The notes under the pieces: model-generated
Seen by the model: the letters and a program-made list of their open reading frames with translations, nothing else
What the model was told of the DNA's origin: nothing
Database searches by the model: none
Assembly (NCBI GenBank): GCA_964367745.1
Contig: CAYIYK010000004.1
Coordinates: forward strand, 449-64,448
From: an uncultured Candidatus Saccharibacteria bacterium
Lineage (GTDB): Bacteria > Patescibacteriota > Minisyncoccia > Phycocordibacterales > PALSA-1337
Direction: 5' to 3'
Length of the DNA: 64,000 nt
Translations under genes and position numbers: made by a program
In this document: positions 33,539 to 64,000 of the stretch, in pieces
Layout: each line of letters opens with the position of its first letter
How positions within the stretch are numbered: the stretch's first letter is position 1

Positions 33539-36500
33539 CTATTTTTGCAAATTCACCTTCGCTCTGGTTAGAGGTCCAAAGAATCCTGAAGCTGGTTTGA
33601 TACCATTTGCTATTTGATATCTTATCAAAGCGGCTTTTGTTGCTGGACCGAAGTATATTGATTCATTACCTCTTGAACCTATTCCTGAGCTAGATATTGT
33701 ATAGCCTTTTGTATTCAAGAATACCTGTAATTGTCTAACATCTGAACCTGATGATCCTAGAGTTAATGATCTAGAGAATGTATATCCTATTGTTGTTGAA
33801 GGTACACTAGATGTTACTGGAGCAGATGGAATCGATACTGTGCCAGTCGAACTATATAGAGAATTCACGATTGACATAGTTTGAGTATCCAATATTCCAG
33901 TTCCAACAATTCCCTTTGCAGTCTGGAACCTAATCAAAGCTGCTCTTGTTGCCGGACCGAAGTATGTCGATTCATTTCCTCTAGAACCTGCACCAAAAGT
34001 TGATACTGCGAAACCTTGATTATTCAAGAATACCTGTAGCAATCTAACATCATCTCCAGTGGCAGTAATAGAGAGTGATCGTACAAATGTCGCTTTTGGT
34101 GCAGAACTTGATGAACCCCCAGATCTACTACTTCCACTTCTACTTGAACCTGAAGATGTAACAGTACTTTGATTCTGATTTGATACAACTGGTGGAGCAA
34201 GTTCATCTATAACCTCGTAAGTTGAGAATCCAGGAACAGTGAATACAAGAGTATTATTGGTATAAGATACTATTGTACATTTATCACATGCCACACCATC
34301 CCTCATAATCTTCGGCTTAGCCGCTGTTATGTTATACAAGGTAATAGTAGCGGGTTTGTTCAATTCTGGAATATTTGATGAATCTAAGTAAACCAAACGA
34401 TTTGAGATATTAAGATTTGAATCAATATCAAGAGATTCACCTGTTGATTTAATCAATGAGTAATTACCTGAATTAAAGTTTACTTTTCCTTGAGAATTTC
34501 TCAATTCAATATCGCTAATAGAATTCAGATCTAGAGATGAAATATCATTTGAGTGAAACTTAGTTAATCTCGGCAATGGACATCCTTTCTTATTTACTGC
34601 AACTTTATCTTTGGTATTAGGACACTTATCACCATCGTTTGGCACTCCATCAGAATCACTGTCTGACTGAACTGATAGCTGGTTTCCAACTGAAATATTT
34701 ACAACTGCGTCTGTCTGATTTGCATTTCCTTTAACATCTATACACTTTATATATATAAAGTTAAGGCCGGTTGAAAGGTTTGTAATATTTGCACCATGTG
34801 AATTATTTGAAGATGTAAATAGATTTGGCATAGATGCATAAGGTATACCAGAGCCACTACTCCACTTACATACAGCTGATTCATCAGTAGTTATGTTAAG
34901 TTTGGCTGAAAAAGTACCTGAAGTAACATCAATTACTTCTCTCGGAGTCGTAATAATTGGAGCAGTAACATCAACTTGATTCACTACTAAATTCGTAGTA
35001 GTAAACATTTTATCAGAAGATAATTGGATTCCTCCCAAAGCGTTTTTCGATTTAACTCTAAAATGGTATGTAGTATTTGGAGATAGATTGGTCAACGTCT
35101 GACTATGGAATGATACAGGGTTCGATACTAGTGATGTTGAGTTTCCATATGCAGATGTTAGTCCGTATTCAATTTGAGTATCTGATACTTCATTTGTACT
35201 CCAAGAAATCACTGCACTAGAATCATTTACTGACGATACAGATATTGAACTTATTATTGGAGTAACAACACTTGGATTTGATATAACTCCATTACATCCA
35301 TACGCTCCGATATAAGTACCATTTTCTCCACCACGACACAATGGTGACGAAGACAGAGGTATCAGACCATCATCAGAAGTAAATGGAACTCCGTCTGGAC
35401 CGAGCGGATTTGAAGGATTTGAAAGTTTCGGATCACCTCCGTTTATACCATTTTTTTCTGAACCTCCAAAAGATAGCAGAGTAGTAGATTTTGCTGGATA
35501 TCCTTGTGCAGCTGGTCCTGCTATATAGTTATAATCTGCAGTTACTTCAGGAGAAGGTAGACCATCACCACCTCTAATCGAGTACCAGCCTCTATCAGAA
35601 TCTGAATTTGCACCAGTCAAATTTCCAGATTCTAGGAATATATTATTTTTGATTACACTACCAACTGGATTACCGTGACCACTTTTGCCGATTACAAAGT
35701 TATGGTTTGAAATACGAGCACTCTTATAAAATGTATTATTTGTAACTATTGTCTGTGGTCTAGTGAAGCTTCCTGACATCTCAACATTTACGAATATATT
35801 ATTTCTTATAAGTAGACCCTTGTTTTCCATTGCAGGCACATTAGTCAATTGTTCTTCTACTGAAGCCAGTTGTTCATCAATATCTTTAATAAAGTTATAC
35901 TCAAATATAGTATTGTTGATTGACTGTTCTGGTGTACCAATACTTGTCATTAGAGTATCGTACATGTCGGATGTACCTGAACCCATTGCAAACACAGTAC
36001 CTATTTTTGGTAGTTCAAAATCTTCCCATCTCGGTGAATCTCTAAATATGTTATATCGGAAGATATTATTATCACCATAGAAAGCTATCATTCTCCAACC
36101 ATTCATCTTTTCCCATATATTTTTTTCTACTATGTGATTTGAACCTTGAATTTGTAGGCCTTTACCAGCAAGATTACTTAGAGTGTTTCCTTGAATTAGA
36201 CAATTGTCTGGTTGATATCCGCCAGATGAAAGCATTATTATTCCCCATAGACCATTCTTTTCTGCTCTATTCATATATATTGTTGCTGCTACCGGTCCTT
36301 CAGTAAAAACAGTATTTGATGGATCTAGAGTGAGAACCTTATCCGTTACGGATATAACACGTTTTGTCTCATATTTGTATGGAACACCTCCGTTATTATC
36401 ATGATTCTGTATTTGTTTATTTATATTTGACCCTATATAGATAGACATCCCTGGTTCAAAACCTGCTGCAATAAATCCTCCATTTGGATTAGTTATCGTC

Positions 36501-39500
36501 TTTGTTGGTCCATCAAAATACATATTTTTAGAATATATGTATATACCGTCTCTAATAGTGTTATCTATTATCTGACAATTATCAGCAGGCGGTTCTACAG
36601 TAATATGTCCCTGATCAAGTCCCACACCGTATCTTGTAATATCAAATCCCTCAACTCTTACGTATGGATTCTTAATTCTAAAACCTTTCATAGTAACAAT
36701 ACCTTGAGCTTTAAATGTTACGTATTTACCAGACTGACCAACACTAGCAGTTTGCACATGTTCTGGATATACACCAGCAGTTATTAAACATGTCTCACCA
36801 GCCTTAATTACATTTGCACATTTTTGAATAGTTTTGAAAGGTGAAGATTGCGTACCCGGATTCGTATCACTACCAGTATTAGATACGTACAAAGTATTAA
36901 GTGAAGGTGTGATAGGTGGGACCGTAGGTGGAGGATTTGATCCAACTCCACTACCTGAACCTGTAGCAAAGACCTTTGTTGGATCACAACTATACGCACC
37001 TATATCAACACCACTTGAACCCTTAGCACACAATGGGGATCCTGGTAGAGGCTTTAGTCCATCATCGATAGTAAAAGGTAGACCGTCTGGACCAAGCGGA
37101 TTCGCGGGATTAGTAAATTTAGGATTACCACCATTTATTCCATTTGCTTCTAGATTATCAACCTTGAAGCCTGTCTTACCTGGATAACCTAAACCAGCTG
37201 AACCCGCCACGAAGTTATAATCTGCAAGAACCCCAGGTGTAGGTTTACCGTCATCTCCTCTTACAGAGTACCAGCCATTATCATTCTGTATTTCATCTTT
37301 AACTCCAGAATCCACAAAAGCATTATTTTTTATCTCGCTACCGACCGGATTACCATGTGCACTTTTTCCAATTACAAAGTTTTGATTTGATATTCTAGCA
37401 CTCTTATAGAATGTGTTATTACTCAATATTGTCTGTGGTCTTGTAAAACTTCCTGACATTTCAACATTTATAAATACATTGTTTCTAATGTATAAACCCT
37501 TATTTTGTAGTGCTGTACCAACAGATGCAGCTTCCTCAACTGAGGCTAGTTGTTCATCAACATCTTTTACGAAGTTATATTCAAATACATTATCATTTAC
37601 TTGTTGATCAATGGCTCCCGTACTAGTCATCAGAGTATCGTACATATCCCATGATCCAGAACCAAGCGCAAATTGAGTACCGGGCTTTGGCAATTGGAAT
37701 CCTGGCCAGCGTGTAGAATCTCTAAAAATATTATAACGAAAAACATTGTTACTTCCGAAAAAAGAAATCATTCGCCATCCGTTCATACGCTCAAAAGTGT
37801 TCTTTTCAATAACATTATTCAAGCCAGCAATTTGCATACCTTTACCTGCTAAGTTGCGTAATGTGTTACCCTGTATCAAACAATTGTCAGGTTGACCACG
37901 TGATGTTGATGAATTGAATATAATACCCCATACACCATTCTTTTCTGCTTTATTAACATATATTGTAGAGGTAACTGGACCTTCACTAAATACTGTATTA
38001 GAAGGATCGAGTGTTAATGTGGTATCGGTAACTGCAATAACTTTCTTCGTTTCGAACTTATACGGAACAGCACCGTTGTTATCGTGATTTAATATTTGAT
38101 TATTGATATCAGAAGCTATATATATAGTCACACCAGGAACGAAACCAGCAGATATAAAACCACCTGAGGGGTTTGTAATGGTTCTATTCGCTCCGTTGAA
38201 AGTAAAGTTGTTTGAACTAAGATAAATACCATCGCGAATAGTATTGTTTATTATCTGAGAATAATCTCCTTCTGGTTCTACAGCGATGTGTCCTTGATCA
38301 AGACCGACATCGTATTTAGTAATATCAAATCCTTCGATTCTAACGTAAGGATTCTTAATTCTGAAACCTTTCATAGTAACAGTACCTTGAGCCTTGAATG
38401 TTACATATTTACCATTTGCACCACTATTTAATGTCTCGACATGTTCCGGATAAACACCTGCGGTAACTAGACATGTTTCTCCAGCCTTAACTATATTTGC
38501 ACACTTTTGAATTGTCTTTAGTGGAGAAGATTGTGCACCGGTATTTGTATCGTTACCTGAACTTGAAACATAGATAGTACCAGTTGTAGGAACAACAACT
38601 GGTGGTTGATTTGTAGGTGGGTTATTGTTTGGAGGTGTTACCGATATTCCACCTGTACCTGAATTCCCTGTCGCAAAAACTTTATTTGAATCGCAACTAT
38701 ACACACCAATGTCAACACCATTCAATCCCTTTCCGCAAAGAGGTGATCCTGGTAAAGGTTTCAAACCGTCATCAGTAGTAAAGGGAATATTATCTGGACC
38801 ATCTGGATCGTTTACATTTTTAAGCATTGGATCACCACCATTTACTCCATTCTTTTCGCAGAAACGGAAGTTCTTATTTACACCACTAACACAACCATCT
38901 GCTCTTTTTGGGGGATATCCAAGTGATGCAGGTCCTGATACGAAGTTGTAATTTGTCACATAAGTATTTCTAATACTTGTATCGAGATCACTTGTTAATT
39001 TAAGATATTTATATATACCACTTTTATATGCTGAATAACTAGGTGAGACATAGAAATCACTTTCACTTGATAAAGCCTTGGTTTTTGCTGTTGGACGTCC
39101 ATTACCATCTGTGTAGCCATTTGCCACGAGATCACTCATTATTCCAGCGGCGATTGGTGTTAATGATGTCTCATTAGCTGCAACCTCATTTGTTACATAG
39201 AACCTCATAACTTCCTGTCCGATTCCTGCCCCAGAGTTAGAGTAAAATCCCTGTGTATCACCACCCCTTCCACCACCTATGAATGCGTTGCTGATTGCTG
39301 TCATCCTAGAAGAATCACCCCTAGTTAAACTGCCACCTGACACGAGTCCGTCCTGTGTGTATGCTGTCTTATAAAATGTATTATTTTCAAAAGTTATACC
39401 AGGTACACCTAGGTTCCAGTTATTACCAATATTTGCAAAAACATTTCTTCTAAAAGTAAAGTCGCGGAAATCTGGCATGAGTCTTGGGTTAACCAGACTA

Positions 39501-41218
39501 CCACCACTATTCATTTGACCCATTTGATAACCTGTTTCAGTTATTGCTAAAAGATTTTCAATCCAATTTTCTTCGAAAAGCATATTGAATGATCTACCTC
39601 CATTATCTGCGAAAGTTTGTACGAAGTCAGGGTGATTCCCAGTACCCGATACTGGAATAGAATTCCTAAAAACATTTCTATAAAATACGTGATCTTGACC
39701 AAAAGGACGTACGAGATCCCAACCACCAGCCTCTTCAAAAACATTGTTTTCAAATCTACTTCCAATACCATCGGTTGTAAGGTAATTAGCATTGATCCTA
39801 CTTACTGTATTTCCTTTAAATAGACAATAATTACCAGTAATTCCTCCGTCTCTCGAAGATGAATAGAATGATATACCTGCAACTCTTTTTACTCCGTCAT
39901 GTATTGTATTGTTTAAAACCTTACAATAATCTCCACCTTTTGTAACACCAATATATTGTTGATTTAAACTTGGACCAGTAATGTCGAAACCATCAACAGT
40001 CACATAAGAATTTCTAATATCAAAACCATTTACAACTACCTTGCCATTTGCCTTGAAAGTGACACGATTCGAATCACTTGTTCCATTCTTCTTTGTCATT
40101 ACTTGCTCTGAATAATCTCCTGCACTAACAAGACAAGTGTCACCTGCTTCAGCAACATTTGCACATGCTTGAATTGTTGGATATTCTTCAGGAACACATT
40201 TTGTACTTGCTCCAGCACAGCCAGCACTTACATTTTGACTAACAACAGGTGATACGATTTGAGAAATTACAGCTGGTTTAGTAACAGCAGGTGCAGTTGA
40301 AACTGGAGTAACTGCATTATTAATAGTCTGAGTATTAGTAGATGATGTAACACTTGAAGCTGCACTACCACTCAATGAGTACAGATCAGAAACTTCTTGA
40401 GAAGTAACTGCGCGGTTATAAATACGTACATCGTCTATATCACCAGAATAGAAATTGGGAATATTGTTCCATCCAATTCTTAGAGGATCGTTAACTGAAG
40501 TATTCAATAATCCACCAGCACCACTAACACTTCCAATTTGATTACCGTTTACATAGACCGTTGAAGATGGATTACTGTAAACAACCACAACATGATTCCA
40601 ACTACCAGTTGATAGTGTGTTAGCAGGAGTCATTTGTGAAAATGCTACTCCACCACCGCTAGAACCACCAATTCTCCATATTACAGATAGAGATGTACCA
40701 TTTGAACCAACCTCAAAAAGTCTTCCAGTTCCCCATTTAGTTATAAAGGGTTTTGAACCTACTGATGGCTTCACCCAGAAAGATATTGAAGCGGAATTTA
40801 AACCATTTAAAGCATTAAAATTTGGAACATCTACATATTGATTTGTTCCATTTAGTTTTAGAGATCCCGAGCCAATTTTCCCAGGTACCCAAGTAGAATT
40901 CCCTCCTACTATTGTTCCATTGTTTGTTCCAACTGAATCAGTAGCAGTAGTTCCGGAAGTTTCGTCTAGTTTAAAATGAGATACTAGACCGTTTGTTAAG
41001 GTGGCACCTACTTGAGCGTGTTGTAGATTACTATATGACGCTACATCAGTCTTTGAAAAAATTTCTTCTATCTTTTTATCTAATAAATTGGTAAGTGCTA
41101 GTGTTGCTATGAACATACAACCAATCAATGAAAACGCATAAAGAACATTGACTGGTTGCTTTAATATTTTTTTGTATTTTTCCATATAGTTATGGAATAA
41201 TTTTAACACACATACCAT
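33539..41218 (-). CDS. Giant surface protein (2559 aa): N-terminal LamG domain, two tandem roughly 500-aa right-handed beta-helix units, FN3 domain, thrombospondin-type-3-like acidic repeat and two C-terminal peptidoglycan-binding domains
   Basis: LamG signature (WNHVVVVY...DDVRIYNRAVTSQEVSDLY). A duplicated block LKTIQKCANIVKAGETCLVTAGVYPEHV... / FKTIQKCANVIKAGETCLITAGVYPEHV.... FN3 (ISWSTNEVSDTQIEYG...TTYHFRV). DSDSDGVPNDGDKCP. Two DVRxLQVFLN...FGPAT PG-binding repeats. Confidence 0.85.
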   Translation of the reverse strand: MVCVLKLFHNYMEKYKKILKQPVNVLYAFSLIGCMFIATLALTNLLDKKIEEIFSKTDVASYSNLQHAQVGATLTNGLVSHFKLDETSGTTATDSVGTNNGTIVGGNSTWVPGKIGSGSLKLNGTNQYVDVPNFNALNGLNSASISFWVKPSVGSKPFITKWGTGRLFEVGSNGTSLSVIWRIGGSSGGGVAFSQMTPANTLSTGSWNHVVVVYSNPSSTVYVNGNQIGSVSGAGGLLNTSVNDPLRIGWNNIPNFYSGDIDDVRIYNRAVTSQEVSDLYSLSGSAASSVTSSTNTQTINNAVTPVSTAPAVTKPAVISQIVSPVVSQNVSAGCAGASTKCVPEEYPTIQACANVAEAGDTCLVSAGDYSEQVMTKKNGTSDSNRVTFKANGKVVVNGFDIRNSYVTVDGFDITGPSLNQQYIGVTKGGDYCKVLNNTIHDGVKRVAGISFYSSSRDGGITGNYCLFKGNTVSRINANYLTTDGIGSRFENNVFEEAGGWDLVRPFGQDHVFYRNVFRNSIPVSGTGNHPDFVQTFADNGGRSFNMLFEENWIENLLAITETGYQMGQMNSGGSLVNPRLMPDFRDFTFRRNVFANIGNNWNLGVPGITFENNTFYKTAYTQDGLVSGGSLTRGDSSRMTAISNAFIGGGRGGDTQGFYSNSGAGIGQEVMRFYVTNEVAANETSLTPIAAGIMSDLVANGYTDGNGRPTAKTKALSSESDFYVSPSYSAYKSGIYKYLKLTSDLDTSIRNTYVTNYNFVSGPASLGYPPKRADGCVSGVNKNFRFCEKNGVNGGDPMLKNVNDPDGPDNIPFTTDDGLKPLPGSPLCGKGLNGVDIGVYSCDSNKVFATGNSGTGGISVTPPNNNPPTNQPPVVVPTTGTIYVSSSGNDTNTGAQSSPLKTIQKCANIVKAGETCLVTAGVYPEHVETLNSGANGKYVTFKAQGTVTMKGFRIKNPYVRIEGFDITKYDVGLDQGHIAVEPEGDYSQIINNTIRDGIYLSSNNFTFNGANRTITNPSGGFISAGFVPGVTIYIASDINNQILNHDNNGAVPYKFETKKVIAVTDTTLTLDPSNTVFSEGPVTSTIYVNKAEKNGVWGIIFNSSTSRGQPDNCLIQGNTLRNLAGKGMQIAGLNNVIEKNTFERMNGWRMISFFGSNNVFRYNIFRDSTRWPGFQLPKPGTQFALGSGSWDMYDTLMTSTGAIDQQVNDNVFEYNFVKDVDEQLASVEEAASVGTALQNKGLYIRNNVFINVEMSGSFTRPQTILSNNTFYKSARISNQNFVIGKSAHGNPVGSEIKNNAFVDSGVKDEIQNDNGWYSVRGDDGKPTPGVLADYNFVAGSAGLGYPGKTGFKVDNLEANGINGGNPKFTNPANPLGPDGLPFTIDDGLKPLPGSPLCAKGSSGVDIGAYSCDPTKVFATGSGSGVGSNPPPTVPPITPSLNTLYVSNTGSDTNPGTQSSPFKTIQKCANVIKAGETCLITAGVYPEHVQTASVGQSGKYVTFKAQGIVTMKGFRIKNPYVRVEGFDITRYGVGLDQGHITVEPPADNCQIIDNTIRDGIYIYSKNMYFDGPTKTITNPNGGFIAAGFEPGMSIYIGSNINKQIQNHDNNGGVPYKYETKRVISVTDKVLTLDPSNTVFTEGPVAATIYMNRAEKNGLWGIIMLSSGGYQPDNCLIQGNTLSNLAGKGLQIQGSNHIVEKNIWEKMNGWRMIAFYGDNNIFRYNIFRDSPRWEDFELPKIGTVFAMGSGTSDMYDTLMTSIGTPEQSINNTIFEYNFIKDIDEQLASVEEQLTNVPAMENKGLLIRNNIFVNVEMSGSFTRPQTIVTNNTFYKSARISNHNFVIGKSGHGNPVGSVIKNNIFLESGNLTGANSDSDRGWYSIRGGDGLPSPEVTADYNYIAGPAAQGYPAKSTTLLSFGGSEKNGINGGDPKLSNPSNPLGPDGVPFTSDDGLIPLSSSPLCRGGENGTYIGAYGCNGVISNPSVVTPIISSISVSSVNDSSAVISWSTNEVSDTQIEYGLTSAYGNSTSLVSNPVSFHSQTLTNLSPNTTYHFRVKSKNALGGIQLSSDKMFTTTNLVVNQVDVTAPIITTPREVIDVTSGTFSAKLNITTDESAVCKWSSGSGIPYASMPNLFTSSNNSHGANITNLSTGLNFIYIKCIDVKGNANQTDAVVNISVGNQLSVQSDSDSDGVPNDGDKCPNTKDKVAVNKKGCPLPRLTKFHSNDISSLDLNSISDIELRNSQGKVNFNSGNYSLIKSTGESLDIDSNLNISNRLVYLDSSNIPELNKPATITLYNITAAKPKIMRDGVACDKCTIVSYTNNTLVFTVPGFSTYEVIDELAPPVVSNQNQSTVTSSGSSRSGSSRSGGSSSSAPKATFVRSLSITATGDDVRLLQVFLNNQGFAVSTFGAGSRGNESTYFGPATRAALIRFQTAKGIVGTGILDTQTMSIVNSLYSSTGTVSIPSAPVTSSVPSTTIGYTFSRSLTLGSSGSDVRQLQVFLNTKGYTISSSGIGSRGNESIYFGPATKAALIRYQIANGIKPASGFFGPLTRAKVNLQK

Positions 41219-50665: not shown

Positions 50666-50670
50666 AAATT

Positions 50671-50868: not shown

Positions 50869-50874
50869 AAAAAA

Positions 50875-51732: not shown

Positions 51733-51750
51733 GATATAATATTAACACAT

Positions 51751-52761: not shown

Positions 52762-52764
52762 AGA

Positions 52765-54668
<1,904 letters not shown>

Positions 54669-54701
54669 TTTAATTATATAAAATTATTTGATAGACAAAC
54701 A

Positions 54702-54731
54702 AAAAACTGCCACTCGGCAGTTTTTTGTTTT
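54702..54731. terminator. Bidirectional intrinsic terminator between the convergent LOG and RRM genes
   Basis: AAAAACTGCC-ACTC-GGCAGTTTTTTG. Confidence 0.7.
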
Positions 54732-54746
54732 AAGACGGGTAAAGTA

Positions 54747-55052
54747 TTACCAATTTCCTCGACCTTCTCCACCTCGATTGAAATCCTTTCGAGGAGCACG
54801 AGGTTCCATAGGACGAGCCTCGTTCACAGTAAGATTTCTTCCATCAAGTGGCTTACCGTTGAACATATTGATAGCATTGTCTGCTTCTGCATCTGTAGCC
54901 ATTTGAACGAATCCAAAACCTTTTGATCGGTTTGTCATCTTGTCCATAATGATTGATGCTGATTCAACTGTTCCTGCAGCAGCGAAGTGAGATCTTAGAC
55001 CATCCTCACTTGTACCGTATGAAATACCTCCTACATATAACTTCTTTGCCAT
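54747..55052 (-). CDS. RRM-domain RNA-binding protein with a Gly/Arg-rich tail
   Basis: RNP-2 LYVGGI and RNP-1 KGFGFVQM. Confidence 0.8.
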   Translation of the reverse strand: MAKKLYVGGISYGTSEDGLRSHFAAAGTVESASIIMDKMTNRSKGFGFVQMATDAEADNAINMFNGKPLDGRNLTVNEARPMEPRAPRKDFNRGGEGRGNW

Positions 55053-55157: not shown

Positions 55158-58100
55158 TTACTTCCCTGTTACTTTTTTCATTGTAAGTGGCCCAAAGAAA
55201 CCAACAGATGGTTTAATATTGTTAGCAACTTGGTATCTAATAAGGGCAGATCTGGTAGCAGGGCCAAAGGTTGTAGATTCTAGTCCTTTAGATCCAGCTC
55301 CTTTAGTCGATACTGTAAATCCTTGTGAGTTTAGGAAGATTTGTAGTTGTCTTACATCTTCTCCCTTGATACCTAGTGATAGGTTACGCTTGAATGGATA
55401 CAGTGAGGTTTTTGTAGTATTTATTGTATATACTGGTGGATATGTCTGTATTGTCTTTGTAGTGGTTGTAGGGGTGCGAGATACAGATGATCTTCCTCCT
55501 CCGCCTCCACCACCTCCTCTAGATGAAGTAGATTCGACTACACTTGGTATCTTTGTAAATGTAGCTACTACTACCTTGTCTGATGTAGAGTTTACAGTAC
55601 AACTACCTGTTCCTGAACATACTCCTCCAGTCCATCCTCCAAATGTTGATCCTGGGTCTGGTGTAGCTGTTAGAGTTAGTGTTGTAGAGTCATTTACTAC
55701 CTCTGAACAATCACTACCACAAGATATACCTGTACCTGACACTGTACCTGTTCCTGAGCCTAGTGGAGTTACTGATATTGTATATGTTACAGGTGGTGTT
55801 GTACCTTCGATGATTGAGTATGTAGAGAAGCTAGGTACAGTGAATACTAGGGTACCGTTTATGTATGAGATGATTGTACATGTAGTACATTCTACTCCGT
55901 CTTTAATTACCTTTGGTGTCTTTGCTGTAAGGTTGTATAGCGTTACTGTAGCTCCTTTGTTTAGTTCAGGCATACGAGAAGAGTCTAGAGACAGAGTTCC
56001 TTTGGCTATAGATATATTTGCATCTAGGTCTAGAGGTTCGCCTGTACTCTTTACTAGAGTAAGTGGTGTAGAGTATGAGATCTTACCTAGACTGTTCTGT
56101 ATATCAAATGAAGATACACTGTTTAGATCTGCATTAGCTAGGTTAACTGATGTTGTGAACTTTGTTGTTAGAGGTAGAGCACAACCATAGTTGTTTACTG
56201 TTACTCCTGTAGGTGTATATGGACACTTGTCTACAGAGTTCGCAATACCGTCTAGGTCGGAGTCTGCTACTGTTGGAGTGACGGGGGTGGGGGTGGGAGT
56301 GGGAGTCGAGGTTACAGGGGTTGGAGATGGGGTCGGTATATAAGGATTAGGTTGGTTTGAAATATTTGAAAGCTGAGTAGAATTTAAATTTAAAATATTT
56401 GGAAAATAACTAACACCTTCTGTACCGTAGGAAATCAAATCCACTCCATTATTTGACCACTTTAATTTTCTAGAAAGAGTAGTGTCGGTTATGACGGGTT
56501 GAAACACAAGAGTTGTCGGGTCAATTCTATATATTTTATTATCTACATATATCCAAACATAACCATCTGGACCAAGTTCTAACTTAAATTCCATTCTAGA
56601 GAATCTTCCATCAAGACCTCCGAAGGTGTTTCCTGCAACTCCAATAGATTTCGGTGCTATTATCATTGTTCTATTTGATGGTTTGAACAAGAATACTCTA
56701 GGTCCTGAAGGGTCTGCGCTCGTAGTAACTCCTAATACTTGATCATTTGCCACTTCTTTCATAAAGGCATTTACTCCGAGATCATAACTACCTTCTATGG
56801 TCTTGGTTAATGCGTTTATAACCGTAAGTTTTCCATCATTACTAGATACAACAACTTTAGAGCGATTGTTTGAAGTAGTTAGACTTGCAAACTTTATTGA
56901 ATTACCAGTCGCGGGTGGATTCCCACCAGTCCATATACCTGCAAAAATCTCTCCACCAACAGCAGTTCTTGGCTCATACCAAGCCACACCTCCATAATCT
57001 ACACATCCCGGAGTAGCTCCACACATATCACCTCCGATCCATATCTTACCCTCTGAATCGTAGTCGAGATAGTATCTATAATTCATATGTTCACTTGTGA
57101 TTACTTTTACTGGATTTGTACCAGCTAGTCTTGAAGATACTGCCTGTGTTGGCATCCACCTAAAGACCTGGTTAGGATAGCCAGCAAAATATATTTCATC
57201 AGTCCCAGACGGTGTAAGTGAACTTGGAACTTTCAATGTTGTATATATACTAACCGGTGGCAACCCTGCTATTGGTGTCGTGATTATTTGTCTAACATAA
57301 TCATAAAATGTTGTAATATCTCCAAAAGCGAAGAATTTATTATTCCCTTGATAAGGTTCAACAGACATAATTGGTAAATCATACCAAAGGTCATTGTATC
57401 TTAATGATGATGTTTTATATCCAGATATTGGATAATTCCAAGTACTATGTGGACCGTAATGTACAGTACTGACCGGATTGGCAATATTTGGTAATATGCC
57501 GTCCCAATTCATATCGTAGTCAAACGCACTAATGAATTGATTATAATTTCCATACCCCATCATTGATATATGGTTTTTATAATTTAGATCAATTTGGGTT
57601 TGTGTACCACTATTAGGTAGGGTACCTGTAATTAAAGTTGCTTTACCATTTTCAAGCCAATAATATTTGACTCCCGATCCTGTATTCCTATATATATAGG
57701 GTTTTTTTGTTGTATTATCTATACCAATATAGACATTATTCGCCTTAACCTGTATCGCGTCACCATAATTAATTTCATACCAAGTACCATTATCAGCAAG
57801 AGGTCTTACCATTAATCTAGAATAGTTATTTGTAGTATTTTCAGACCACTCAACATAAGCATGAGTCTTATCTACATACAGACTTGGACTACTAGCGTTA
57901 CTGATATCATAAATAATTCCAAGATCCTTCCAACTACTTGCACCGATTGATGGATCATAAGAATATAGATGTGAAGGCACGTTTGAGTGAATAGCGGTGA
58001 AATAAATTTTTCCATCTTCACCTAGAGCCATTGATTGGCCAGCCCACCAAGTCGATCCCCCATTTCGAATGACTGTATTAGTCATTGTAACAGGGTCAAA

Positions 58101-60539
58101 TTCGTTAAAAGATCCTCCAGTTTGATATGAACAGTATTCACCATACCAATAAAATTTATTATGAATTGGATCATAAATACTATTTCTACCCATAGAACAG
58201 ATACCTCCCTCTACCAAGGCGCTAGCGCCAGTACCTGTATTTATATAATGAATATATGCCCTACCTTCCCCAGAAATATCTGCTCCTCCGAAACTATTTA
58301 TAATATGAACTGTACCTGCGTTATCCTTCCACATTATATTTTGGGCTGCATAACCCTGCCTTCCTTGTATTACATGTGGTAGAGAAATTTGAGTAGTACC
58401 AAAAGATGTTGCAGATTGACCGGTCGTAGTTACAGTAAGTGGACTAGATTGGTTTGACACATTACCTGAAGTGTCCACAGATAATACTTGATACAGATAT
58501 GTTGAACCAGCTGTTAAACCACTATCAGTATATGAATTACCTGAAGTCACAATAGCCGTCTGTATATTATTTCTATAGATTTTATAACCGGAAATTGCCA
58601 CATTGTCGGTAGAAGGTGTCCAAGATATAGTAGCTGAGGTATTGCCGATATTTGAAGATGTTAAATTTGAAGGGACTGATGGTGCAGTAACGTCAGATGA
58701 ACCAGGATTTGAAGTTGCCACACCTGAATATATATTCGCGATTTCGGCTGGTGTTAGAGCACGGTTATAAACTCTGATATCATCTATAAAACCCTTAAAA
58801 TATTCACTTCGAGATTTACCGATAACAAATGGAATCGTAGGTGACACTATTGATACACCCGGACCAACTCTCTCGGATGAAGGTATCGAATTCTTAAAGA
58901 AAGTGATTTTATTTGTAACTAAATCATAAGTAAATGCTATGTGTGTCCATTGATCGACAGGTGGTGCTGATGTTTTTTGAAAATCATAAGTTGTACCATT
59001 GATCAAAACCCTGGAAGTTGCTGTTCCATCCCACATACCACCAAGACCGAATCCTGATTGACCATATGTATTATTATGTATAAAAGGTTCTTGAGAAGAC
59101 CATACTGTTTTTGGATATACCCAGGCAGAAACTGTGACAGAATTTAAATTTGAAAAAGCACTCATTTGACCAAACTGTGCAAAATCGTCTATACCATCAA
59201 AAGATACCGCTTGCCCAATTCTCCCACCCACCCAAACTGGTGAACTTGCTCCGGTAGAAAGACTTGCATTATTATTATTTCCACTTGAATCACCGATTGT
59301 TGTTCCAGAACCTTCATCAAAATTATATTTAAGTATCAATCCGTTTTGGATGTTATTTACTGGAGTTGGTGCAGGAGTAGGAGTTGGCGTGGGAGTGGGA
59401 GTTGGTGTCGGAGTCGGAGTTGGAGTTGGTTGTGCAACTACCACTTGTTGAGTTGAAACACTAAATGATTGTGATTGGGACGATGAATTCCCTGCCGCAT
59501 CATAAGCTAAAACCGTATATGAATAACTAGTACCAGTAGTAAGACCGGAAACATTAAATGTATTTGTACTTACTGTACTTATTTGATTATTATTTTGAAA
59601 AACTTTATATCCAGTTACTGCAGTATTATCTGTAGATACTGACCAATTTAGAGTAAATGAAGTCTGTGTAATATTTGCAGATGAAAGGTTGGTAGGGATA
59701 CTTGGTGCTGTTGTGTCAGCGACTGGAGTTGGTACTGGGCTTGAAACTGAACCGCTAAAATTATAAAGATCTGATATCTCACTAGAAGACAATGCTCTAT
59801 TATATAAACGAACCTCATCAATAGATCCATTAAAATATCCTCCATCTATAGGATCTCTACCGACTTCAAATATTGAACCTTGATCAGGTATTAGAGACCC
59901 GTTGAATGATTTTGGTGTACTCGCCACTCCATTCTTATAATATATAACTGTATTTAAACTTGCATTATATGTAAAAGCAATATGTGTCCAAGAACCGGCA
60001 ACAGGTTCAGATACTGAAGGAAAATCAATCGAATCATAACCAAAATATATTCTCGATCCATCAGCCCACAAGGCACCTATACCGAATTCTCTTCCTGATT
60101 GAATATATGGTCTTATACTACTACTACCTGGAGTAGTAGACCATTTAGCGTTTGGCTTAACCCAAGCAGAAACTGTTATAGCGCCCGCGTTCTTTAGGGC
60201 GGTAATACTATTCATCTTTACATAGTCATTCACACCATCAAGATTCAAGGCTCCAGCACCAACTTTACCTGTAGTTATACTTGCACCGTTCATAGCTGTA
60301 CCATTATTTGACCCTGCCGAATCTGTACCTATATTGTTTGAATCATCAAAATTGTAATAAGCGACTAACCCTGATCCTGCACCAGATACCTGGGCGCTTT
60401 GTGTTGTATTTTGAATAGTATTAATAAAAGAAAAGACATCGCCAACTTTCAGACTAGAGTGATTTATAAAATAAACTGACCCGATTAAAAGTAGCAGGAG
60501 GATTGCGAATGCGTGTGATGATTTTATATTTTTTTTCAT
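55158..60539 (-). CDS. Giant surface protein (1793 aa): two LamG + FN3 modules, Pro-Thr linkers, a probable beta-propeller-like middle region, TSP3-like motif, InlB-B-repeat-like domain and C-terminal peptidoglycan-binding domain
   Basis: Signal peptide. LamG (IDEVRLYNRALSSSEISDLY; IDDIRVYNRALTPAEIANIY). FN3 (TGYKVFQNNNQ...; SGYKIYRNN...). DSDLDGIANSVDKCP. The C-terminal roughly 340 aa are near-identical to the C-terminus of the 43477..47121 protein. Confidence 0.85.
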   Translation of the reverse strand: MKKNIKSSHAFAILLLLLIGSVYFINHSSLKVGDVFSFINTIQNTTQSAQVSGAGSGLVAYYNFDDSNNIGTDSAGSNNGTAMNGASITTGKVGAGALNLDGVNDYVKMNSITALKNAGAITVSAWVKPNAKWSTTPGSSSIRPYIQSGREFGIGALWADGSRIYFGYDSIDFPSVSEPVAGSWTHIAFTYNASLNTVIYYKNGVASTPKSFNGSLIPDQGSIFEVGRDPIDGGYFNGSIDEVRLYNRALSSSEISDLYNFSGSVSSPVPTPVADTTAPSIPTNLSSANITQTSFTLNWSVSTDNTAVTGYKVFQNNNQISTVSTNTFNVSGLTTGTSYSYTVLAYDAAGNSSSQSQSFSVSTQQVVVAQPTPTPTPTPTPTPTPTPTPAPTPVNNIQNGLILKYNFDEGSGTTIGDSSGNNNNASLSTGASSPVWVGGRIGQAVSFDGIDDFAQFGQMSAFSNLNSVTVSAWVYPKTVWSSQEPFIHNNTYGQSGFGLGGMWDGTATSRVLINGTTYDFQKTSAPPVDQWTHIAFTYDLVTNKITFFKNSIPSSERVGPGVSIVSPTIPFVIGKSRSEYFKGFIDDIRVYNRALTPAEIANIYSGVATSNPGSSDVTAPSVPSNLTSSNIGNTSATISWTPSTDNVAISGYKIYRNNIQTAIVTSGNSYTDSGLTAGSTYLYQVLSVDTSGNVSNQSSPLTVTTTGQSATSFGTTQISLPHVIQGRQGYAAQNIMWKDNAGTVHIINSFGGADISGEGRAYIHYINTGTGASALVEGGICSMGRNSIYDPIHNKFYWYGEYCSYQTGGSFNEFDPVTMTNTVIRNGGSTWWAGQSMALGEDGKIYFTAIHSNVPSHLYSYDPSIGASSWKDLGIIYDISNASSPSLYVDKTHAYVEWSENTTNNYSRLMVRPLADNGTWYEINYGDAIQVKANNVYIGIDNTTKKPYIYRNTGSGVKYYWLENGKATLITGTLPNSGTQTQIDLNYKNHISMMGYGNYNQFISAFDYDMNWDGILPNIANPVSTVHYGPHSTWNYPISGYKTSSLRYNDLWYDLPIMSVEPYQGNNKFFAFGDITTFYDYVRQIITTPIAGLPPVSIYTTLKVPSSLTPSGTDEIYFAGYPNQVFRWMPTQAVSSRLAGTNPVKVITSEHMNYRYYLDYDSEGKIWIGGDMCGATPGCVDYGGVAWYEPRTAVGGEIFAGIWTGGNPPATGNSIKFASLTTSNNRSKVVVSSNDGKLTVINALTKTIEGSYDLGVNAFMKEVANDQVLGVTTSADPSGPRVFLFKPSNRTMIIAPKSIGVAGNTFGGLDGRFSRMEFKLELGPDGYVWIYVDNKIYRIDPTTLVFQPVITDTTLSRKLKWSNNGVDLISYGTEGVSYFPNILNLNSTQLSNISNQPNPYIPTPSPTPVTSTPTPTPTPVTPTVADSDLDGIANSVDKCPYTPTGVTVNNYGCALPLTTKFTTSVNLANADLNSVSSFDIQNSLGKISYSTPLTLVKSTGEPLDLDANISIAKGTLSLDSSRMPELNKGATVTLYNLTAKTPKVIKDGVECTTCTIISYINGTLVFTVPSFSTYSIIEGTTPPVTYTISVTPLGSGTGTVSGTGISCGSDCSEVVNDSTTLTLTATPDPGSTFGGWTGGVCSGTGSCTVNSTSDKVVVATFTKIPSVVESTSSRGGGGGGGGRSSVSRTPTTTTKTIQTYPPVYTINTTKTSLYPFKRNLSLGIKGEDVRQLQIFLNSQGFTVSTKGAGSKGLESTTFGPATRSALIRYQVANNIKPSVGFFGPLTMKKVTGK
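55182..56233. repeat. Copy 2 of the roughly 1.05-kb segmental repeat (3' end of the giant-protein gene 55158..60539)
   Basis: See copy 1. The spurious plus-strand ORFs 43535..44503 and 55219..56190 translate almost identically, which confirms the repeat. Confidence 0.9.
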
Positions 60540-60601: not shown

Positions 60602-62800
60602 TTACCTTCCAGTATTATAAAGTTGCGCCACCTCTGATTGTGACAGTACTCTATTATATATACGGACATCATCAATCTTCCCTTTTATAAGATAATTTGG
60701 ACTACCACTCGATAGTAGTGAACCTATAGTGAGCGGTGTATTAACATTCCTTATTGTTGTAAAAGTACCACCTTGGGTATTAGTATCATCAACCTGGACA
60801 CCGTTGTAATATAGCTTTACTGAGCTTGATGTAGAACCACCATCATAAGTACCAACTATGTGGTACCATACACCCTTAACTATTTTTCGGGAAGTTGATC
60901 TTCCTATATAGCCAGCACTGGAACTATCTAGGAGCATGAGACCTAGACCAGACCCATCTGTCTCAAAAAGTTGTCCCATTTCCAAGGTATAAGCATAACT
61001 ACCACTCTCATCGAATTTACCAATAATGGAAGGGCTATTTGTAAAATCATTAAACAAAGCCCATGTAGATATTGAAAATGGTACTCCACCATTCAAATCC
61101 AGAATATCTCCCATGGAAATATAATCATTTGTTCCGTCAAAATTACCAGCTTGCCCTATCTTACCCGGTGTATAGAAAGTTGATGTGGCTATATTATTCA
61201 AATTCCCATTATTACCATTACCACTTCTATCTCTCACTACACCACCTACCATATCTTTACCATCAAAAGTCCAATAGCCTACGAGACCACAACTTAATCC
61301 TGATATACATGAAGAATTTTGAATTATGTTTTGTGACGAAGATTGTTTTGTTGATATATTACTAATATATAGTTGTTTAATCTCTCCAACCGTAAGTGCC
61401 CTATCATAAACTCTGAATTCATCAATTACACCATTTACTGATTGATTTGCATTACCTGTACCTCCGAGTGTAATGAATCTCATAGCATCAAATGTCCCCA
61501 CAGATGGTGCTGTCGAATTATATAAAACACCATTTATATACCAATCTATTTGAGTCGGAGTGTAGACGAAAGTATTTAGATATGGGAGTCTTGTTTCAGA
61601 ACTATACACAGTCGATTGTGCAGAACTTCCACCATTATTTGAACTTGCTTGTATCCTAGGATTGTTACCGGTACTGTACCATCGATAAAAATTTGATTCA
61701 TTGTATGTAGTCTTACCCATTTGAAAACCTGTTTGATTGCCCTGCCAATCACTAGCTTTTCTGGGTGTATACCATAGTGATATAGTGAAAGTTGATCTTG
61801 CTGTACCTAGATCAGAAAATATATAATCATTGTTTGAAGTAAACCTTAAAGCCTGCCCTTTGACACCTGCAGTATAGAAAGTTGATGTAGAAATATTTGC
61901 AGTGTTTGCAACTGTACCACTTCCACTTCTATCTCTTACAACACCGTTAACTATATCTTTTCCATCAAAAGTCCAATAGCCTACGAGACCACAAGAAAGA
62001 CCAATTGAGCATGTAGAGGTATTAACTACAGATGAAGAAGAGCTTTGTTTATTCGAAGCACCAGAAGAGTACAATTGGGAAATCTCGGAAGTAGAAAGTG
62101 CTCTATTATATACGCGAACATCATCGATCAGACCATTAAACCATGATCCAGTTGAACCGTACAACGATCCAAATGTTATTGATTGATTAGTCCAATTTAA
62201 ATTTCCAGCGCTGGTAGAATTGACCTGAACACCATTTTCATAAAGTCTTTCAATTACGCCATCTGAAGTCATTAGAACATGCACCCACTTATTTGAATAG
62301 TTATTTGTACCAGCTATATTTCTATTCGCTACACCATCGTAAATACGAGACATTGACTGACCTGAAGCGTTAATTCCGACAAAAGCCTCGTTTTCACCCA
62401 CCAAAACAGCTCTCATTTCAGTACCTATATTATTAGGTTTAAGCCAAGCTGATATTGTAATGTTATTGAAATTATTTGGATTTATTGTGGTCTTAAATAT
62501 GTAGTCATTACTTCCATCAAAATTACCAGCTTGCCCTATCTTACCCGGTGTATAGAAAGTTGATGTGGCTATATTATTCAAATTCCCATTATTACCATTA
62601 CCACTTCTATCTCTCACTACACCACCTACCATATCTTTACCGTCAAAAGTCCAGTATCCTACCAATCCACAAGAAAGACCGTATGTACAATTAGATAAAG
62701 GTAAAACATTCGGTGACTTCCCCATAGATGAAGAATGGGAGAATAATGGTGCTGAAGAGATTAACAGTATTATAATTGCCTTAATAAAATTTTTATTCAT
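60602..62800 (-). CDS. Secreted protein with three tandem LamG domains (732 aa), paralog of 41249..43441
   Basis: Three LamG repeats. The first and third share an exact 41-aa block encoded by an exact 125-nt nucleotide repeat. Confidence 0.8.
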   Translation of the reverse strand: MNKNFIKAIIILLISSAPLFSHSSSMGKSPNVLPLSNCTYGLSCGLVGYWTFDGKDMVGGVVRDRSGNGNNGNLNNIATSTFYTPGKIGQAGNFDGSNDYIFKTTINPNNFNNITISAWLKPNNIGTEMRAVLVGENEAFVGINASGQSMSRIYDGVANRNIAGTNNYSNKWVHVLMTSDGVIERLYENGVQVNSTSAGNLNWTNQSITFGSLYGSTGSWFNGLIDDVRVYNRALSTSEISQLYSSGASNKQSSSSSVVNTSTCSIGLSCGLVGYWTFDGKDIVNGVVRDRSGSGTVANTANISTSTFYTAGVKGQALRFTSNNDYIFSDLGTARSTFTISLWYTPRKASDWQGNQTGFQMGKTTYNESNFYRWYSTGNNPRIQASSNNGGSSAQSTVYSSETRLPYLNTFVYTPTQIDWYINGVLYNSTAPSVGTFDAMRFITLGGTGNANQSVNGVIDEFRVYDRALTVGEIKQLYISNISTKQSSSQNIIQNSSCISGLSCGLVGYWTFDGKDMVGGVVRDRSGNGNNGNLNNIATSTFYTPGKIGQAGNFDGTNDYISMGDILDLNGGVPFSISTWALFNDFTNSPSIIGKFDESGSYAYTLEMGQLFETDGSGLGLMLLDSSSAGYIGRSTSRKIVKGVWYHIVGTYDGGSTSSSVKLYYNGVQVDDTNTQGGTFTTIRNVNTPLTIGSLLSSGSPNYLIKGKIDDVRIYNRVLSQSEVAQLYNTGR
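61137..61272. repeat. Intragenic direct repeat copy A (about 136 nt, 1 mismatch) in the LamG x3 gene
   Basis: Identical to 62517..62652. Encodes GKDMVGGVVRDRSGNGNNGNLNNIATSTFYTPGKIGQAGNFDG in LamG domains 1 and 3. Confidence 0.9.
62517..62652. repeat. Intragenic direct repeat copy B
   Basis: See copy A. Confidence 0.9.
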
Positions 62801-62801
62801 A

Positions 62802-64000
62802 TTATTCTTGATTAACTACCGGAACCTGTTCTTGAACACTTGGTTCATTTACTATATCAGGCTGTGTAATATAATTTTGATTATCCTCAACGACCACTTC
62901 TTGATTATTATTTTGGTCATTCGGCGGTGTATCTGAAATTATAGTTGGTGTCGAAGTCGAGGTGGGTGTTTGGACTTGATCGATTACTGTATCTACTGTT
63001 GATGTACTTGTATTATTTGAATTATCAGTATTTTGGTTACTATTTGTTATATTCTGATTTATATCTTCACTAGGTGGAATGGGATTTGAAATTAGAGTTG
63101 TTGTATGACCCGCTCCAGCATTTATAAGCATAGCTTTTAATTGATCTTTATTTACACAAACATCATCAACACATAGTTTTTCTTCTACATGTATTTCTTT
63201 TACGAATATACTCTTGAAATTCAAAGATATATTTGATAATTTCTCAATCAAAATTGAAGTTAAATTAGAAATAAATGAATCAGATTGAACTAGCTTGTCA
63301 GCTGTTGTAGACGCAATAGAATCTGATATTAAGTTTAATGTAGTAGACGCAATCGATAACATTAGCGTACTACTTGATGTTAGATTATATAAATCATTTT
63401 TAATTGAAACTATTTCTGAATTTAAATCTACAGTTGATGACGATATTAGAGTGTTGATAGTTGAAGATGGAGTAACACTTGACGATACATTAGAAGACAG
63501 TACATAACTTGGGGTTGTTGAACTTAGATCTTTAATTTGCTTCTGTTGTTCCTGTACCGCCTGAATCAAAAGTCCTGTTATTTTTTCGAAATGTAGTGAC
63601 AGAGGTTTTCCGTCATATCCATAATCTACTAGATTTTTATCTATCTTCTCCACTTCTTCTGCAATCAATCCATAACTCTTATTTGTTTCAAATTCTTGCT
63701 TTTCAATATAATCAAAATTTACAACTGAGAATTTTGATAATTCATCTAATGCATAGCCACTTGCAAGTGGTGTTACATTTTCCTTAAATCTTATAGATGA
63801 CGGAGTACAACTAGCACCACCAGCATCTGTAATGTCCTTACTTGTAGTTATACATACAGCATTACCAGTAGCAGATGATGTTAGACCGTTAAATGCCACT
63901 GTTCCAACCACTGAGAATTTTCTCCATGGTGTACTTGAACCGACTCCAACACTTCCACTTTCTAGAACCTTCAATAGTGATGTGTTGCTACTATTTAAAG
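62802..64000 (-). CDS. Partial gene (5' end beyond window): tail-fibre-like protein containing a peptidase-S74 / intramolecular-chaperone (endosialidase chaperone) domain followed by a long Ser/Thr/Asn-rich C-terminal extension
   Basis: SSIRFKENVTPL...FSVVNFDYIEK...YGLIAEEVEKIDKNLVDYG...IQAVQEQQKQIKDL matches the phage tail-spike auto-chaperone domain. The reading frame stays open to the window edge; the annotated start is only a TTG. Confidence 0.55.
   Translation of the reverse strand, partial: LNSSNTSLLKVLESGSVGVGSSTPWRKFSVVGTVAFNGLTSSATGNAVCITTSKDITDAGGASCTPSSIRFKENVTPLASGYALDELSKFSVVNFDYIEKQEFETNKSYGLIAEEVEKIDKNLVDYGYDGKPLSLHFEKITGLLIQAVQEQQKQIKDLSSTTPSYVLSSNVSSSVTPSSTINTLISSSTVDLNSEIVSIKNDLYNLTSSSTLMLSIASTTLNLISDSIASTTADKLVQSDSFISNLTSILIEKLSNISLNFKSIFVKEIHVEEKLCVDDVCVNKDQLKAMLINAGAGHTTTLISNPIPPSEDINQNITNSNQNTDNSNNTSTSTVDTVIDQVQTPTSTSTPTIISDTPPNDQNNNQEVVVEDNQNYITQPDIVNEPSVQEQVPVVNQE

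Follow-up and report, generated by a model that had tools for sequence, protein, structure and literature searches.

A chromosomal island of giant exported proteins with LamG, S74 and peptidoglycan-binding domains in an uncultured Candidatus Saccharibacteria bacterium

A 64,000-nucleotide (nt) stretch of DNA from an uncultured Candidatus Saccharibacteria bacterium (assembly GCA_964367745.1, contig CAYIYK010000004.1, positions 449 to 64,448; hereafter the window) contains an island of seven large exported-type proteins. All seven are encoded on the minus strand, and together they occupy ~40% of the 64-kb window and 73% of positions 33539-64000. The reading that we favor, with slightly more belief than doubt, is that this is a chromosomal, fast-diversifying island of Sec-exported surface proteins that would recognize glycans on partner cells. 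The island includes a giant with a tail-fibre-type S74 domain, two proteins with three LamG domains each (3xLamG proteins), and giants that end in peptidoglycan-binding domains (PGBDs). Its open reading frames (ORFs), with protein lengths in amino acids (aa), are:

33539-41218, minus strand: ORF of the 2559-aa giant
41249-43441, minus strand: ORF of the 730-aa 3xLamG protein
43477-47121, minus strand: ORF of the 1214-aa giant
47153-55052: housekeeping block between the two gene groups, identified by Pfam
55158-60539, minus strand: ORF of the 1793-aa giant
60602-62800, minus strand: ORF of the 732-aa 3xLamG protein
62802-64000, minus strand: 3' end of the S74 giant gene, 398 aa visible, frame open to the window end
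28098-31619, minus strand: 1173-aa exported protein (ORF and Pfam), outside the start at 33539

Layout and coding integrity of the island

A sequence-only reading of this DNA had placed seven large secreted proteins of 730-2559 aa between positions 33539 and 64000 and had given four of them C-terminal PGBDs. All seven ORFs are present, and four of the proteins do end in PG_binding_1; the 1173-aa protein, which is both the seventh ORF and the fourth PG_binding_1 protein, lies outside that range. The S74 reading frame has no in-frame stop upstream, and thus the gene is cut by the window end. Each protein with a visible start has a signal-peptide-like N-terminus. A hydropathy scan detected one N-terminal hydrophobic segment in four of the proteins, and the leaders of the 1214- and 732-aa proteins are shorter and fall below the threshold of the scan. 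The scan detected no transmembrane segment beyond the N-terminus of any island protein, and we found neither a sortase motif (LPXTG) nor a C-terminal hydrophobic segment in them. The island proteins are rich in Ser, Thr, Gly and Asn.

Pfam recovered most of the domain families that had been proposed. Laminin_G_3 (PF13385; cut-off 27.6) occurs in five proteins at 73-236 bits: the 730- and 732-aa proteins have three copies each, the 1793-aa protein has two, and the 2559- and 1214-aa proteins have a single copy each. PG_binding_1 (PF01471; cut-off 23) is found in four proteins, at 76 bits for the two copies of the 2559-aa giant and at 31.5, 29.9 and 34.1 bits in the others. The S74 domain, beta-helix profiles, fn3 and the InlB B-repeat (Flg_new_2) were also recovered, the last two above their curated cut-offs. 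The exception is TSP_3, which stays below threshold (15-20 bits against 25) and is represented by a single DxDxDGxxNxxDxCP motif rather than by tandem calcium-binding repeats.

The genes might have been chimeras of repeats produced during assembly, a concern that the sequence-only reading itself had raised. We rule this out. Just one long repeat is shared between genes, over 1.1 kb at the 3' ends of the 1214- and 1793-aa genes; its copies are 88-95% identical in DNA, not 100%, and the gene junctions recur in three independent assemblies. In ERZ650252 (ENA), one contig carries, in order, the C-terminus of the 1214-aa protein (97% identical), an ortholog of the 730-aa protein (84%) and an ortholog of the 2559-aa giant (83% over 1412 aa); a second contig carries the S74 tail (71%), a 732-aa ortholog (66%) and a 1793-aa ortholog. 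In the metagenome-assembled genome (MAG) GCA_964629235.1 (locus L014), the S74 gene (87%) is followed by a 3xLamG gene and by a 1793-aa ortholog that is 85% identical over its full length. Since independent assemblies reproduce both gene orders, the genes are genuine. The ratio of nonsynonymous to synonymous substitution rates (dN/dS) is 0.02-0.11 for the island genes (0.10 for the 1793-aa gene), as for constrained coding genes. A scan for promoters and terminators gave the same counts as in shuffled sequence.

The S74 giant and its 3xLamG neighbor

The stop codon of the S74 giant gene is separated by 1 nt from the start codon of the 732-aa 3xLamG gene. The visible part of the giant contains a Peptidase_S74 domain (PF13884; 39.4 bits against a cut-off of 22, ~63627-63800) and matches the PHROG tail fiber family phrog_1980 (E 1e-11). 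The window's S74 domain contains the motif SSIRFKENV, whose Ser and Lys would correspond to the catalytic dyad of the endosialidases. The motif consensus, S-S-x-R-x-K-x-N-[IV], covers the Ser and Lys of the auto-cleavage site; both residues are kept in at least 80% of the rows in an alignment of 28 homologs and are invariant in a further alignment, A3 (S49, K54). The domain is not at the extreme C-terminus of the protein. It is followed by a Ser/Thr/Asn-rich tail of 270 aa in the window and by tails of 120-450 aa in Patescibacteria homologs, and the tails of generic soil S74 proteins are ~70-100 aa. The ortholog in L014 has at least 1956 aa and is 87% identical over the visible part, and S74 fibre proteins across the loci compared range from 1,300 to >3,600 aa. 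In S74 giants of 1,690-2,573 aa, Pfam recognizes the S74 domain alone and returns nothing for the N-terminal parts.

The 3xLamG proteins are built from modules with constant ends and variable centers. Laminin_G_3, in three copies each, scores 218 bits in the 732-aa protein and 236 bits in the 730-aa protein. Each module begins with a nearly invariant N-terminal framework of ~58 aa, C..GLSCGLVGYWTFDGKD..GV.RD.SGNGN.GNL.NI.TSTFY..GKIGQ..NFDG, and ends with a conserved DDVRIYNR.LS..E..QLY motif and a linker. The cores between these frameworks share only 17-31% identity among modules, a hypervariability that may hint at ligand binding at the variable rim. An AlphaFold2 (AF2) model of the 730-aa protein, a check that had been proposed for one cassette, gives three beta-sandwich domains at a mean predicted local distance difference test score (pLDDT) of 69. 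Its Foldseek matches are neurexin LNS arrays and laminin LG arrays (E 1e-16 to 1e-12), a trans-sialidase lectin domain and the receptor-binding domain of botulinum neurotoxin. Sequence matches of the LamG domains in the PDB are the carbohydrate-binding-module-like domains of an S-layer domain-containing protein (4qvs) and of an arabinanase (5hon). The 732-aa protein matches a PHROG virion structural protein family (2e-34), and the 730-aa protein has an ortholog of 84% identity in L079. In public gene calls, the 730- and 732-aa proteins are shorter (712 and 707 aa) and start past the signal peptide; for the 732-aa protein, the stretch at issue is 62726-62800. Conservation among orthologs spans the longer N-termini, however, and thus favors the longer ORFs.

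The 3xLamG family is large, with 1509 matches at E<=1e-10 among the candidates scored, in versions with three, four, five or more modules and with the labels Paceibacterota, Moranbacteria, Taylorbacteria and Patescibacteria group. We called ORFs in the loci that contain these genes (LamGx3 loci; 76 from GTDB species genomes, mostly Patescibacteria-labelled MAGs, a few with other labels that are probably automatic) and searched the ORFs with hidden Markov models built from the window's domains. An S74 giant was present in 28 of the 78 LamGx3 loci, and it lay upstream of and co-oriented with the LamG-repeat gene in 27 of the 28, a count that describes position and orientation and not frequency, since the loci were chosen via LamG. 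In 15 of those loci the gap between the two genes is -4 to 36 nt. Among generic soil-metagenome S74 genes, used as a control, a LamG gene lies downstream in one of 85. Based on these comparisons, the S74 giant and the 3xLamG gene appear to form a co-oriented, often abutting pair that recurs across Patescibacteria and is frequent, not obligate. The pair is also cellular rather than viral, because IMG/VR yielded only distant multi-LamG proteins (24-37% identity), with an S74 gene nearby in two of 80 loci. Giants with the C-terminal module described below adjoin LamGx3 genes in a minority of loci (L014, L025, L043, L023, L008 and L002). Upstream giants that lack an S74 match share no C-terminal Pfam domain.

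Several further observations concern the surroundings of these genes. A small exported family (~180-240 aa, 15 members) lies immediately upstream of LamGx3, for example at L013 8088-8675 and L015 6263-6814; in several loci it sits between the upstream giant and LamGx3, and it is not at that position in the window. Other small ORFs directly upstream of LamGx3, some of them between the S74 giant and LamGx3 (L007 6564-7082, L033 1081-1623, L030 2188-2862 and L031 9253-9906), resemble, by eye, NYN-type nuclease-domain proteins and IS200/REP-type transposases, which suggests that the S74-LamGx3 junction is an insertion hotspot. Contigs classed as viral in IMG/VR (L088-L167; for example, L128, L156 and L164) encode multi-LamG proteins of up to six modules and 2,232 aa, and some of these arrays look like cellular islands. 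Most of what a scan that started from S74 brought up were small S74 genes from soil, a class not related to the giants. In soil metagenome loci L192, L197, L217 and L224 (GC 54-57%), three to six small S74-domain genes of 350-600 aa form same-strand tandem arrays, and these appear to be a separate, non-phage-looking class, apparently unrelated to the giants.

Putative wall-anchored giants and turnover of the two gene groups

Four of the island proteins carry PG_binding_1 at the C-terminus, and in three of them it closes a longer shared module. From N- to C-terminus, and with PG_binding_1 positions, their builds are:

1793-aa protein: signal peptide, LamG, fn3, LamG, fn3, 720 aa without a Pfam match, TSP3-like motif, conserved beta-rich domain, B-repeat, PG_binding_1 (55173-55364)
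1214-aa protein: signal peptide, LamG, B-repeat, beta-helix, C-terminal module, PG_binding_1 (43498-43683)
2559-aa protein: N-terminal anchor or signal, LamG, 580 aa without a match, two beta-helix units (36899-38581 and 35219-36898), fn3, C-terminal module, two PG_binding_1 (33872-34060 and 33563-33748)
1173-aa protein: C-terminal PG_binding_1 (28119-28298), 34 bits

Orthologs of the 2559-aa giant align from residue 12, and thus Met12 (41185) is the likelier start. The shared C-terminal module opens with a DSDSDGIxNxxDKCP motif. It consists, in order, of a Pro/Thr linker, one TSP3-like motif, a beta-rich domain of ~150 aa without a Pfam match, a B-repeat (missing from the 2559-aa protein) and a Gly-rich linker, and it closes with PG_binding_1 in one or two copies. 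PG_binding_1 is all that the 1173-aa protein has in common with the other giants, and Pfam finds nothing else in it (~1100 aa without a match). Paralogs and orthologs with different N-terminal parts keep the anchor module at 92-97% identity. Its PGBD shares 54-61% identity with the PGBDs of M23 murein endopeptidases, matches 1lbu (N-terminal domain) among PDB sequences, and also matches PHROG endolysin families. A search for homologs of the whole module was dominated by promiscuous B-repeat matches.

The beta-helix units occur in tandem in the 2559-aa giant (~560 aa each) and once in the 1214-aa giant. Their Pfam scores are at or near the cut-offs (DUF1565, 31-34 against 20.3; Beta_helix, 24-41 against 25.9; Pel9A-like, 24.7 against 25.2). 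The AF2 model of unit 1 of the 2559-aa giant (pLDDT 85, predicted template modelling score 0.88) is a right-handed beta-helix with Foldseek matches at E 5e-11 to 1e-6 and template modelling scores of ~0.45-0.55. The closest folds are glycoside hydrolases (GH) and polysaccharide lyases (PL), namely GH136 lacto-N-biosidase, GH120 xylosidase, PL6 chondroitinase B and alginate lyases, PL9 Pel9A, rhamnogalacturonan lyase, GH110 and GH28; phage capsule depolymerases come next. An alignment of the unit has conserved charged columns at E46, H77, R116/D117, D312, H400, K469 and E478. The unit also exists as a stand-alone protein of 560-580 aa (59-63% identity), and some homologs carry dockerin domains. 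One homolog, P0165 (48% identity, 92% coverage), is in a MAG of Candidatus Diapherotrites, a DPANN archaeon, so the domain may be common to ultra-small bacteria and archaea.

The island had been described as two syntenic three-gene cassettes, and this description holds in part. The middle genes, of 730 and 732 aa, are paralogs with 52% identity over their full length. The third genes, of 2559 and 1793 aa, share their ends, with 30% identity in the N-terminal LamG and 44-53% in the C-terminal module, and differ in the middle. The first genes are unrelated as far as they can be compared: the visible 398 aa of the S74 giant have no similarity to the 1214-aa protein. Instead, the C-terminal 369 aa of the 1214-aa protein are 92% identical to the 1793-aa protein (DNA 88-95%), and, judged by these residues and its domain build, the 1214-aa protein is a paralog of the third-gene class.

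The two cassettes also differ in their distribution among relatives; the order of cassette 2 recurs, and two of the three genes of cassette 1 are lacking in close ones. In L081 (GCA_964629235.1) and L087 (a JGI contig), whose housekeeping proteins share 95-98% identity with the window's, the release-factor (RF) gene comes immediately before an ortholog of the 2559-aa giant (1994-1996 aa, 81% identical), and there are no 1214- or 730-aa genes. This arrangement indicates that cassette 1 arose by a recent, lineage-specific insertion. Thus, to judge from gene content in these relatives, cassette 1 is a resident giant gene plus two genes inserted upstream of it in the window lineage. The ERZ650252 population carries the insertion too. 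The resident gene has also changed: the ortholog in L081 and L087 has one beta-helix unit versus two in the window, and the 2559-aa giant has gained an internal duplication of 560 aa (spacing ~1680 nt). In L014, a further, unrelated giant that the window does not have follows the 1793-aa ortholog.

Cassette 2 has a wider context. The order S74 giant, LamG-repeat gene, optional giants and then RRM-LOG-TGT-PfkB-FBA is found, fully or mostly, in L002, L003, L006, L035, L043 and L056, and its recurrence in these six other MAG contigs places cassette 2 at an ancestral chromosomal position. In the window, the block at 47153-55052 consists, by Pfam, of RF, L31, a 448-aa secreted coiled-coil/SLT-like protein, L25, FBA, PfkB, TGT, LOG and RRM. 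It is outside the surface apparatus and acts as a conserved synteny anchor. The housekeeping genes that intervene among the island genes also include S2, EF-Ts and tRNA-Thr.

Paralogous 3xLamG genes, and those of different strains, swap whole modules. Between L014 and the window, the neighbors on both sides of the 3xLamG gene are 85-87% identical in protein and 83% in DNA, whereas the 3xLamG protein itself is 39% identical, with 60-80% in the frameworks and 12-24% in the cores. In L080 (ERZ650252, cassette-2 position), the core of the first module (R1) resembles that of the 730-aa protein (78% identity; 24% with the 732-aa protein), and the core of the third module (R3) resembles that of the 732-aa protein (90%; 25% with the 730-aa protein). 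By these core identities, the L080 protein is a mosaic. Within the 732-aa gene, the R1 and R3 frameworks have 91% nt identity and 21 of 24 fourfold sites are identical, whereas the cores are 31% identical, a combination that points to recent gene conversion.

The surface genes diverge faster than their housekeeping neighbors. At >=90% identity, surface proteins form clusters of one or two members, versus 15-18 for PheS and FBA, and dN of the surface genes is 4-10 times the housekeeping level. We rejected positive selection by point mutation on the LamG cores, with omega (dN/dS) at 0.02-0.11. Orthologous modules are under purifying selection, and therefore diversification proceeds via module exchange, domain duplication and gene insertion, not point mutation. 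We also rejected a diversity-generating retroelement target: there is no reverse transcriptase among the window ORFs scanned, and the repeats in the window are LamG framework segments, not pairs of template and variable repeats.

Proposed role, alternatives and neighboring genes

We postulate that the proteins of the island are exported by Sec and that the giants are then held non-covalently, through PG_binding_1, on the bacterium's own peptidoglycan. The N-terminal LamG heads of three of them, which resemble concanavalin-A-like lectins, would point outwards, with fn3 and the B-repeat as spacers, and the beta-helix units of two giants, with their polysaccharide lyase- or hydrolase-like fold, could perhaps cut glycans. 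The S74 giant would be a trimeric fibre that is cut after folding by its intramolecular chaperone, a self-cleaving domain, as in endosialidases and tail fibres of this family. The abutting 3xLamG protein would be an exchangeable ligand-binding component that acts with the fibre. As a whole, the island would serve to recognize the surface glycans of partner or host cells, and perhaps also to cut them, and its specificity could shift by LamG module swaps, domain duplication or deletion, and gene insertion. In function, such a set would parallel the fibres, tailspikes and adhesins of phages, but on a cell wall.

The side of the cell contact on which PG_binding_1 acts is important for this model. 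The sequence-only reading had allowed for both walls, and we lean towards the organism's own wall rather than the host's. The anchor is C-terminal, it is homogenized amid outward parts that differ, and its PGBD resembles those of M23 enzymes; the last two points would fit a ligand that does not vary, such as one in the organism's own wall. The archaeal hosts of the methanogen-attached Paceibacteria discussed below are not known to have murein, which would likewise favor own-wall anchoring.

Several points weigh against the partner-recognition reading or against parts of it. PG_binding_1 could equally bind the wall of a bacterial host. LamG domains also serve as carbohydrate-binding modules of nutritional enzymes (5hon), and the identity of beta-helix unit 1 to known enzymes is only 10-14%. 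LamGx3 genes are mostly without an S74 neighbor and have other genes upstream, and the LamGx3 loci were selected through LamG, as noted above. In addition, four long-tailed, Patescibacteria-like S74 giants from the S74-side scan have no LamG gene downstream, and for this reason we downgraded the pair from obligate to frequent. Lastly, the bacterium looks Paceibacteria-like by its homologs, and an episymbiotic lifestyle is assumed here from affiliation with Patescibacteria MAGs only.

A more ambitious version of the partner-recognition reading, which we consider doubtful, is that the island encodes a phage-tail-fibre-like host-recognition organelle, composed of the S74 fibre, an exchangeable LamG tip adhesin that the fibre carries or works with, and peptidoglycan-anchored LamG/beta-helix depolymerases that would breach the partner's glycan coat, with a module repertoire that predicts hosts. 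There are clear likenesses to phage receptor-binding proteins such as tail fibres and endosialidase tailspikes. Both have S74 with the Ser/Lys motif, a depolymerase-like beta-helix and mosaic swapping; the LamG protein matches phage structural proteins, and the gene right after the fibre gene codes for a binding protein. However, the locus is chromosomal and non-virion, its fibres are far larger (1,300 to >3,600 aa), S74 is followed by a tail of 120-450 aa and is not terminal, and anchoring would be to peptidoglycan, not to a baseplate. If the organelle is real, LamG module swaps at framework junctions would re-program host range.

The proteins might instead be wall-anchored nutritional glycanases, with LamG as carbohydrate-binding module, the beta-helix as catalytic domain and fn3 as spacer, that feed a sugar-fermenting cell from polymers of the environment or of a host and adhere only incidentally. 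We regard this as unlikely, although every one of the beta-helix unit's closest folds belongs to a GH or PL enzyme, the LamG matches in the PDB are the binding-module-like domains of the arabinanase and of the S-layer-domain protein, some beta-helix homologs have dockerin domains, and glycolytic genes (FBA and PfkB) adjoin the island. The unit is in only two of the seven proteins, and the other five (both 3xLamG proteins, the S74 fibre, and the giants of 1793 and 1173 aa) lack any enzyme-like domain. Moreover, replacement of whole LamG modules between close relatives fits specificity determinants under host or phage pressure better than it fits binding modules for bulk substrates. The island does follow the logic of Gram-positive surface glycanases and adhesins (signal peptide, binding module, beta-helix, fn3 and C-terminal wall binding), but the anchor is PG_binding_1 in a lineage-specific module and not SLH, LysM or LPXTG, and the enzymatic role is putative.

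Somewhat less probable still is a variable envelope or S-layer coat, whose structural components would turn over rapidly to evade phages or predators. The PG-binding anchors and the Ser/Thr/Gly/Asn-rich composition would suit such a coat, as would the best PDB match of the LamG head (4qvs, an S-layer domain-containing protein), the mosaic paralogs and the faster divergence of surface genes (clusters of 1-2 versus 15-18; dN 4-10x). Against this, none of the proteins stands out as a dominant lattice-type component, Pfam recovered neither SLH nor another known S-layer domain, and the lectin heads, depolymerase-like folds and tail-fibre chaperone domain indicate ligand recognition. The two roles can coexist and are not mutually exclusive. 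A phage-derived or prophage tail-fibre module, or viral DNA binned in error, is very improbable. PHROG matches of the S74 domain, the 732-aa protein and the PGBDs, and the multi-LamG proteins in IMG/VR contigs, could be taken to indicate a viral origin, but every phage match is at the level of a single domain and the viral LamG relatives are distant and rarely near S74. We rejected a prophage or phage tail module because a Pfam scan for hallmark genes, which covered most window ORFs of >=200 aa and several shorter ones, found no capsid, terminase, portal, integrase or other phage gene, because ribosomal, tRNA-synthetase and glycolytic genes are interleaved with the island, and because the chromosomal neighborhood is the same across distant MAGs. 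The rest of the window consists of housekeeping genes (DnaE, GyrB, PheST, ThrRS, HisRS, sigma-70, DnaG and others), and the other ORFs scanned are housekeeping genes or exported proteins without a known family.

Genomes of the Candidate Phyla Radiation (CPR) and DPANN are rich in exported LamG/concanavalin proteins that are thought to mediate attachment (PMC11310336, PMC12911398, PMC9563170), and host attachment through LamG has already been speculated for CPR (PMC11310336, PMC12911398, PMC10936435). The island proteins belong to the same superfamily and the same group of organisms, and they share export, abundance and the proposed attachment role. The attachment role is plausible and matches this existing speculation. 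In Paceibacteria attached to methanogens, extracellular PGBD proteins are highly expressed (Kuroda et al. 2024, PMC10936435). Those proteins, likened here by description, are also extracellular, carry PGBDs and Ig/PKD-type spacers, and have a proposed role in attachment. In our literature search we did not find a description of the S74-3xLamG pairing, the architecture of frameworks and swapped cores, the shared PG-binding C-terminal module or the strain turnover.

Hardly any of the ultra-small CPR/Patescibacteria are in culture, and the locus provides specific candidates for how they find and hold their hosts. The operon-like pair of fibre and 3xLamG genes is recurrent, and the cores of its LamG modules are a defined unit of variation that lends itself to typing in metagenomes and to correlation with the hosts that occur alongside. 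The shared C-terminal module provides a handle to search for the wall-anchored surface proteome. We also suspect that islands of this kind, with domains labelled 'tail fibre', 'virion structural protein' and 'endolysin', can be mistaken for viral DNA, a risk to keep in mind where LamG 'auxiliary metabolic genes' are reported from CPR phages.

Some genes in or near the window are of separate interest. In L081 (2694-3299), and also in L082-L087, a gene for a 201-aa prepilin-type (N_methyl) protein lies between a 65-aa ORF and the L25 gene. The same spot in the window (50456-50670) is just a 215-nt gap, so the pilin gene was either lost in the window lineage or gained by the others. The 448-aa protein of the housekeeping block (48411-49757, minus strand) is exported, starts with a coiled coil and matches SLT (lytic transglycosylase) weakly, below threshold, so that it may be an enzyme of cell-wall remodelling. 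A close relative has it at 96% identity, it is conserved next to L31/RF in L003, and L035, L055 and L066 contain further homologs. A 323-aa protein with bPH_2 and Schlafen AlbA_2 domains (1260-2231, minus strand) is not related to the island and is possibly involved in defence. Between ThrRS and GyrB (21077-23068, minus strand) there are two adjacent ORFs of 350 and 301 aa, with only a weak PKD-like Pfam match.

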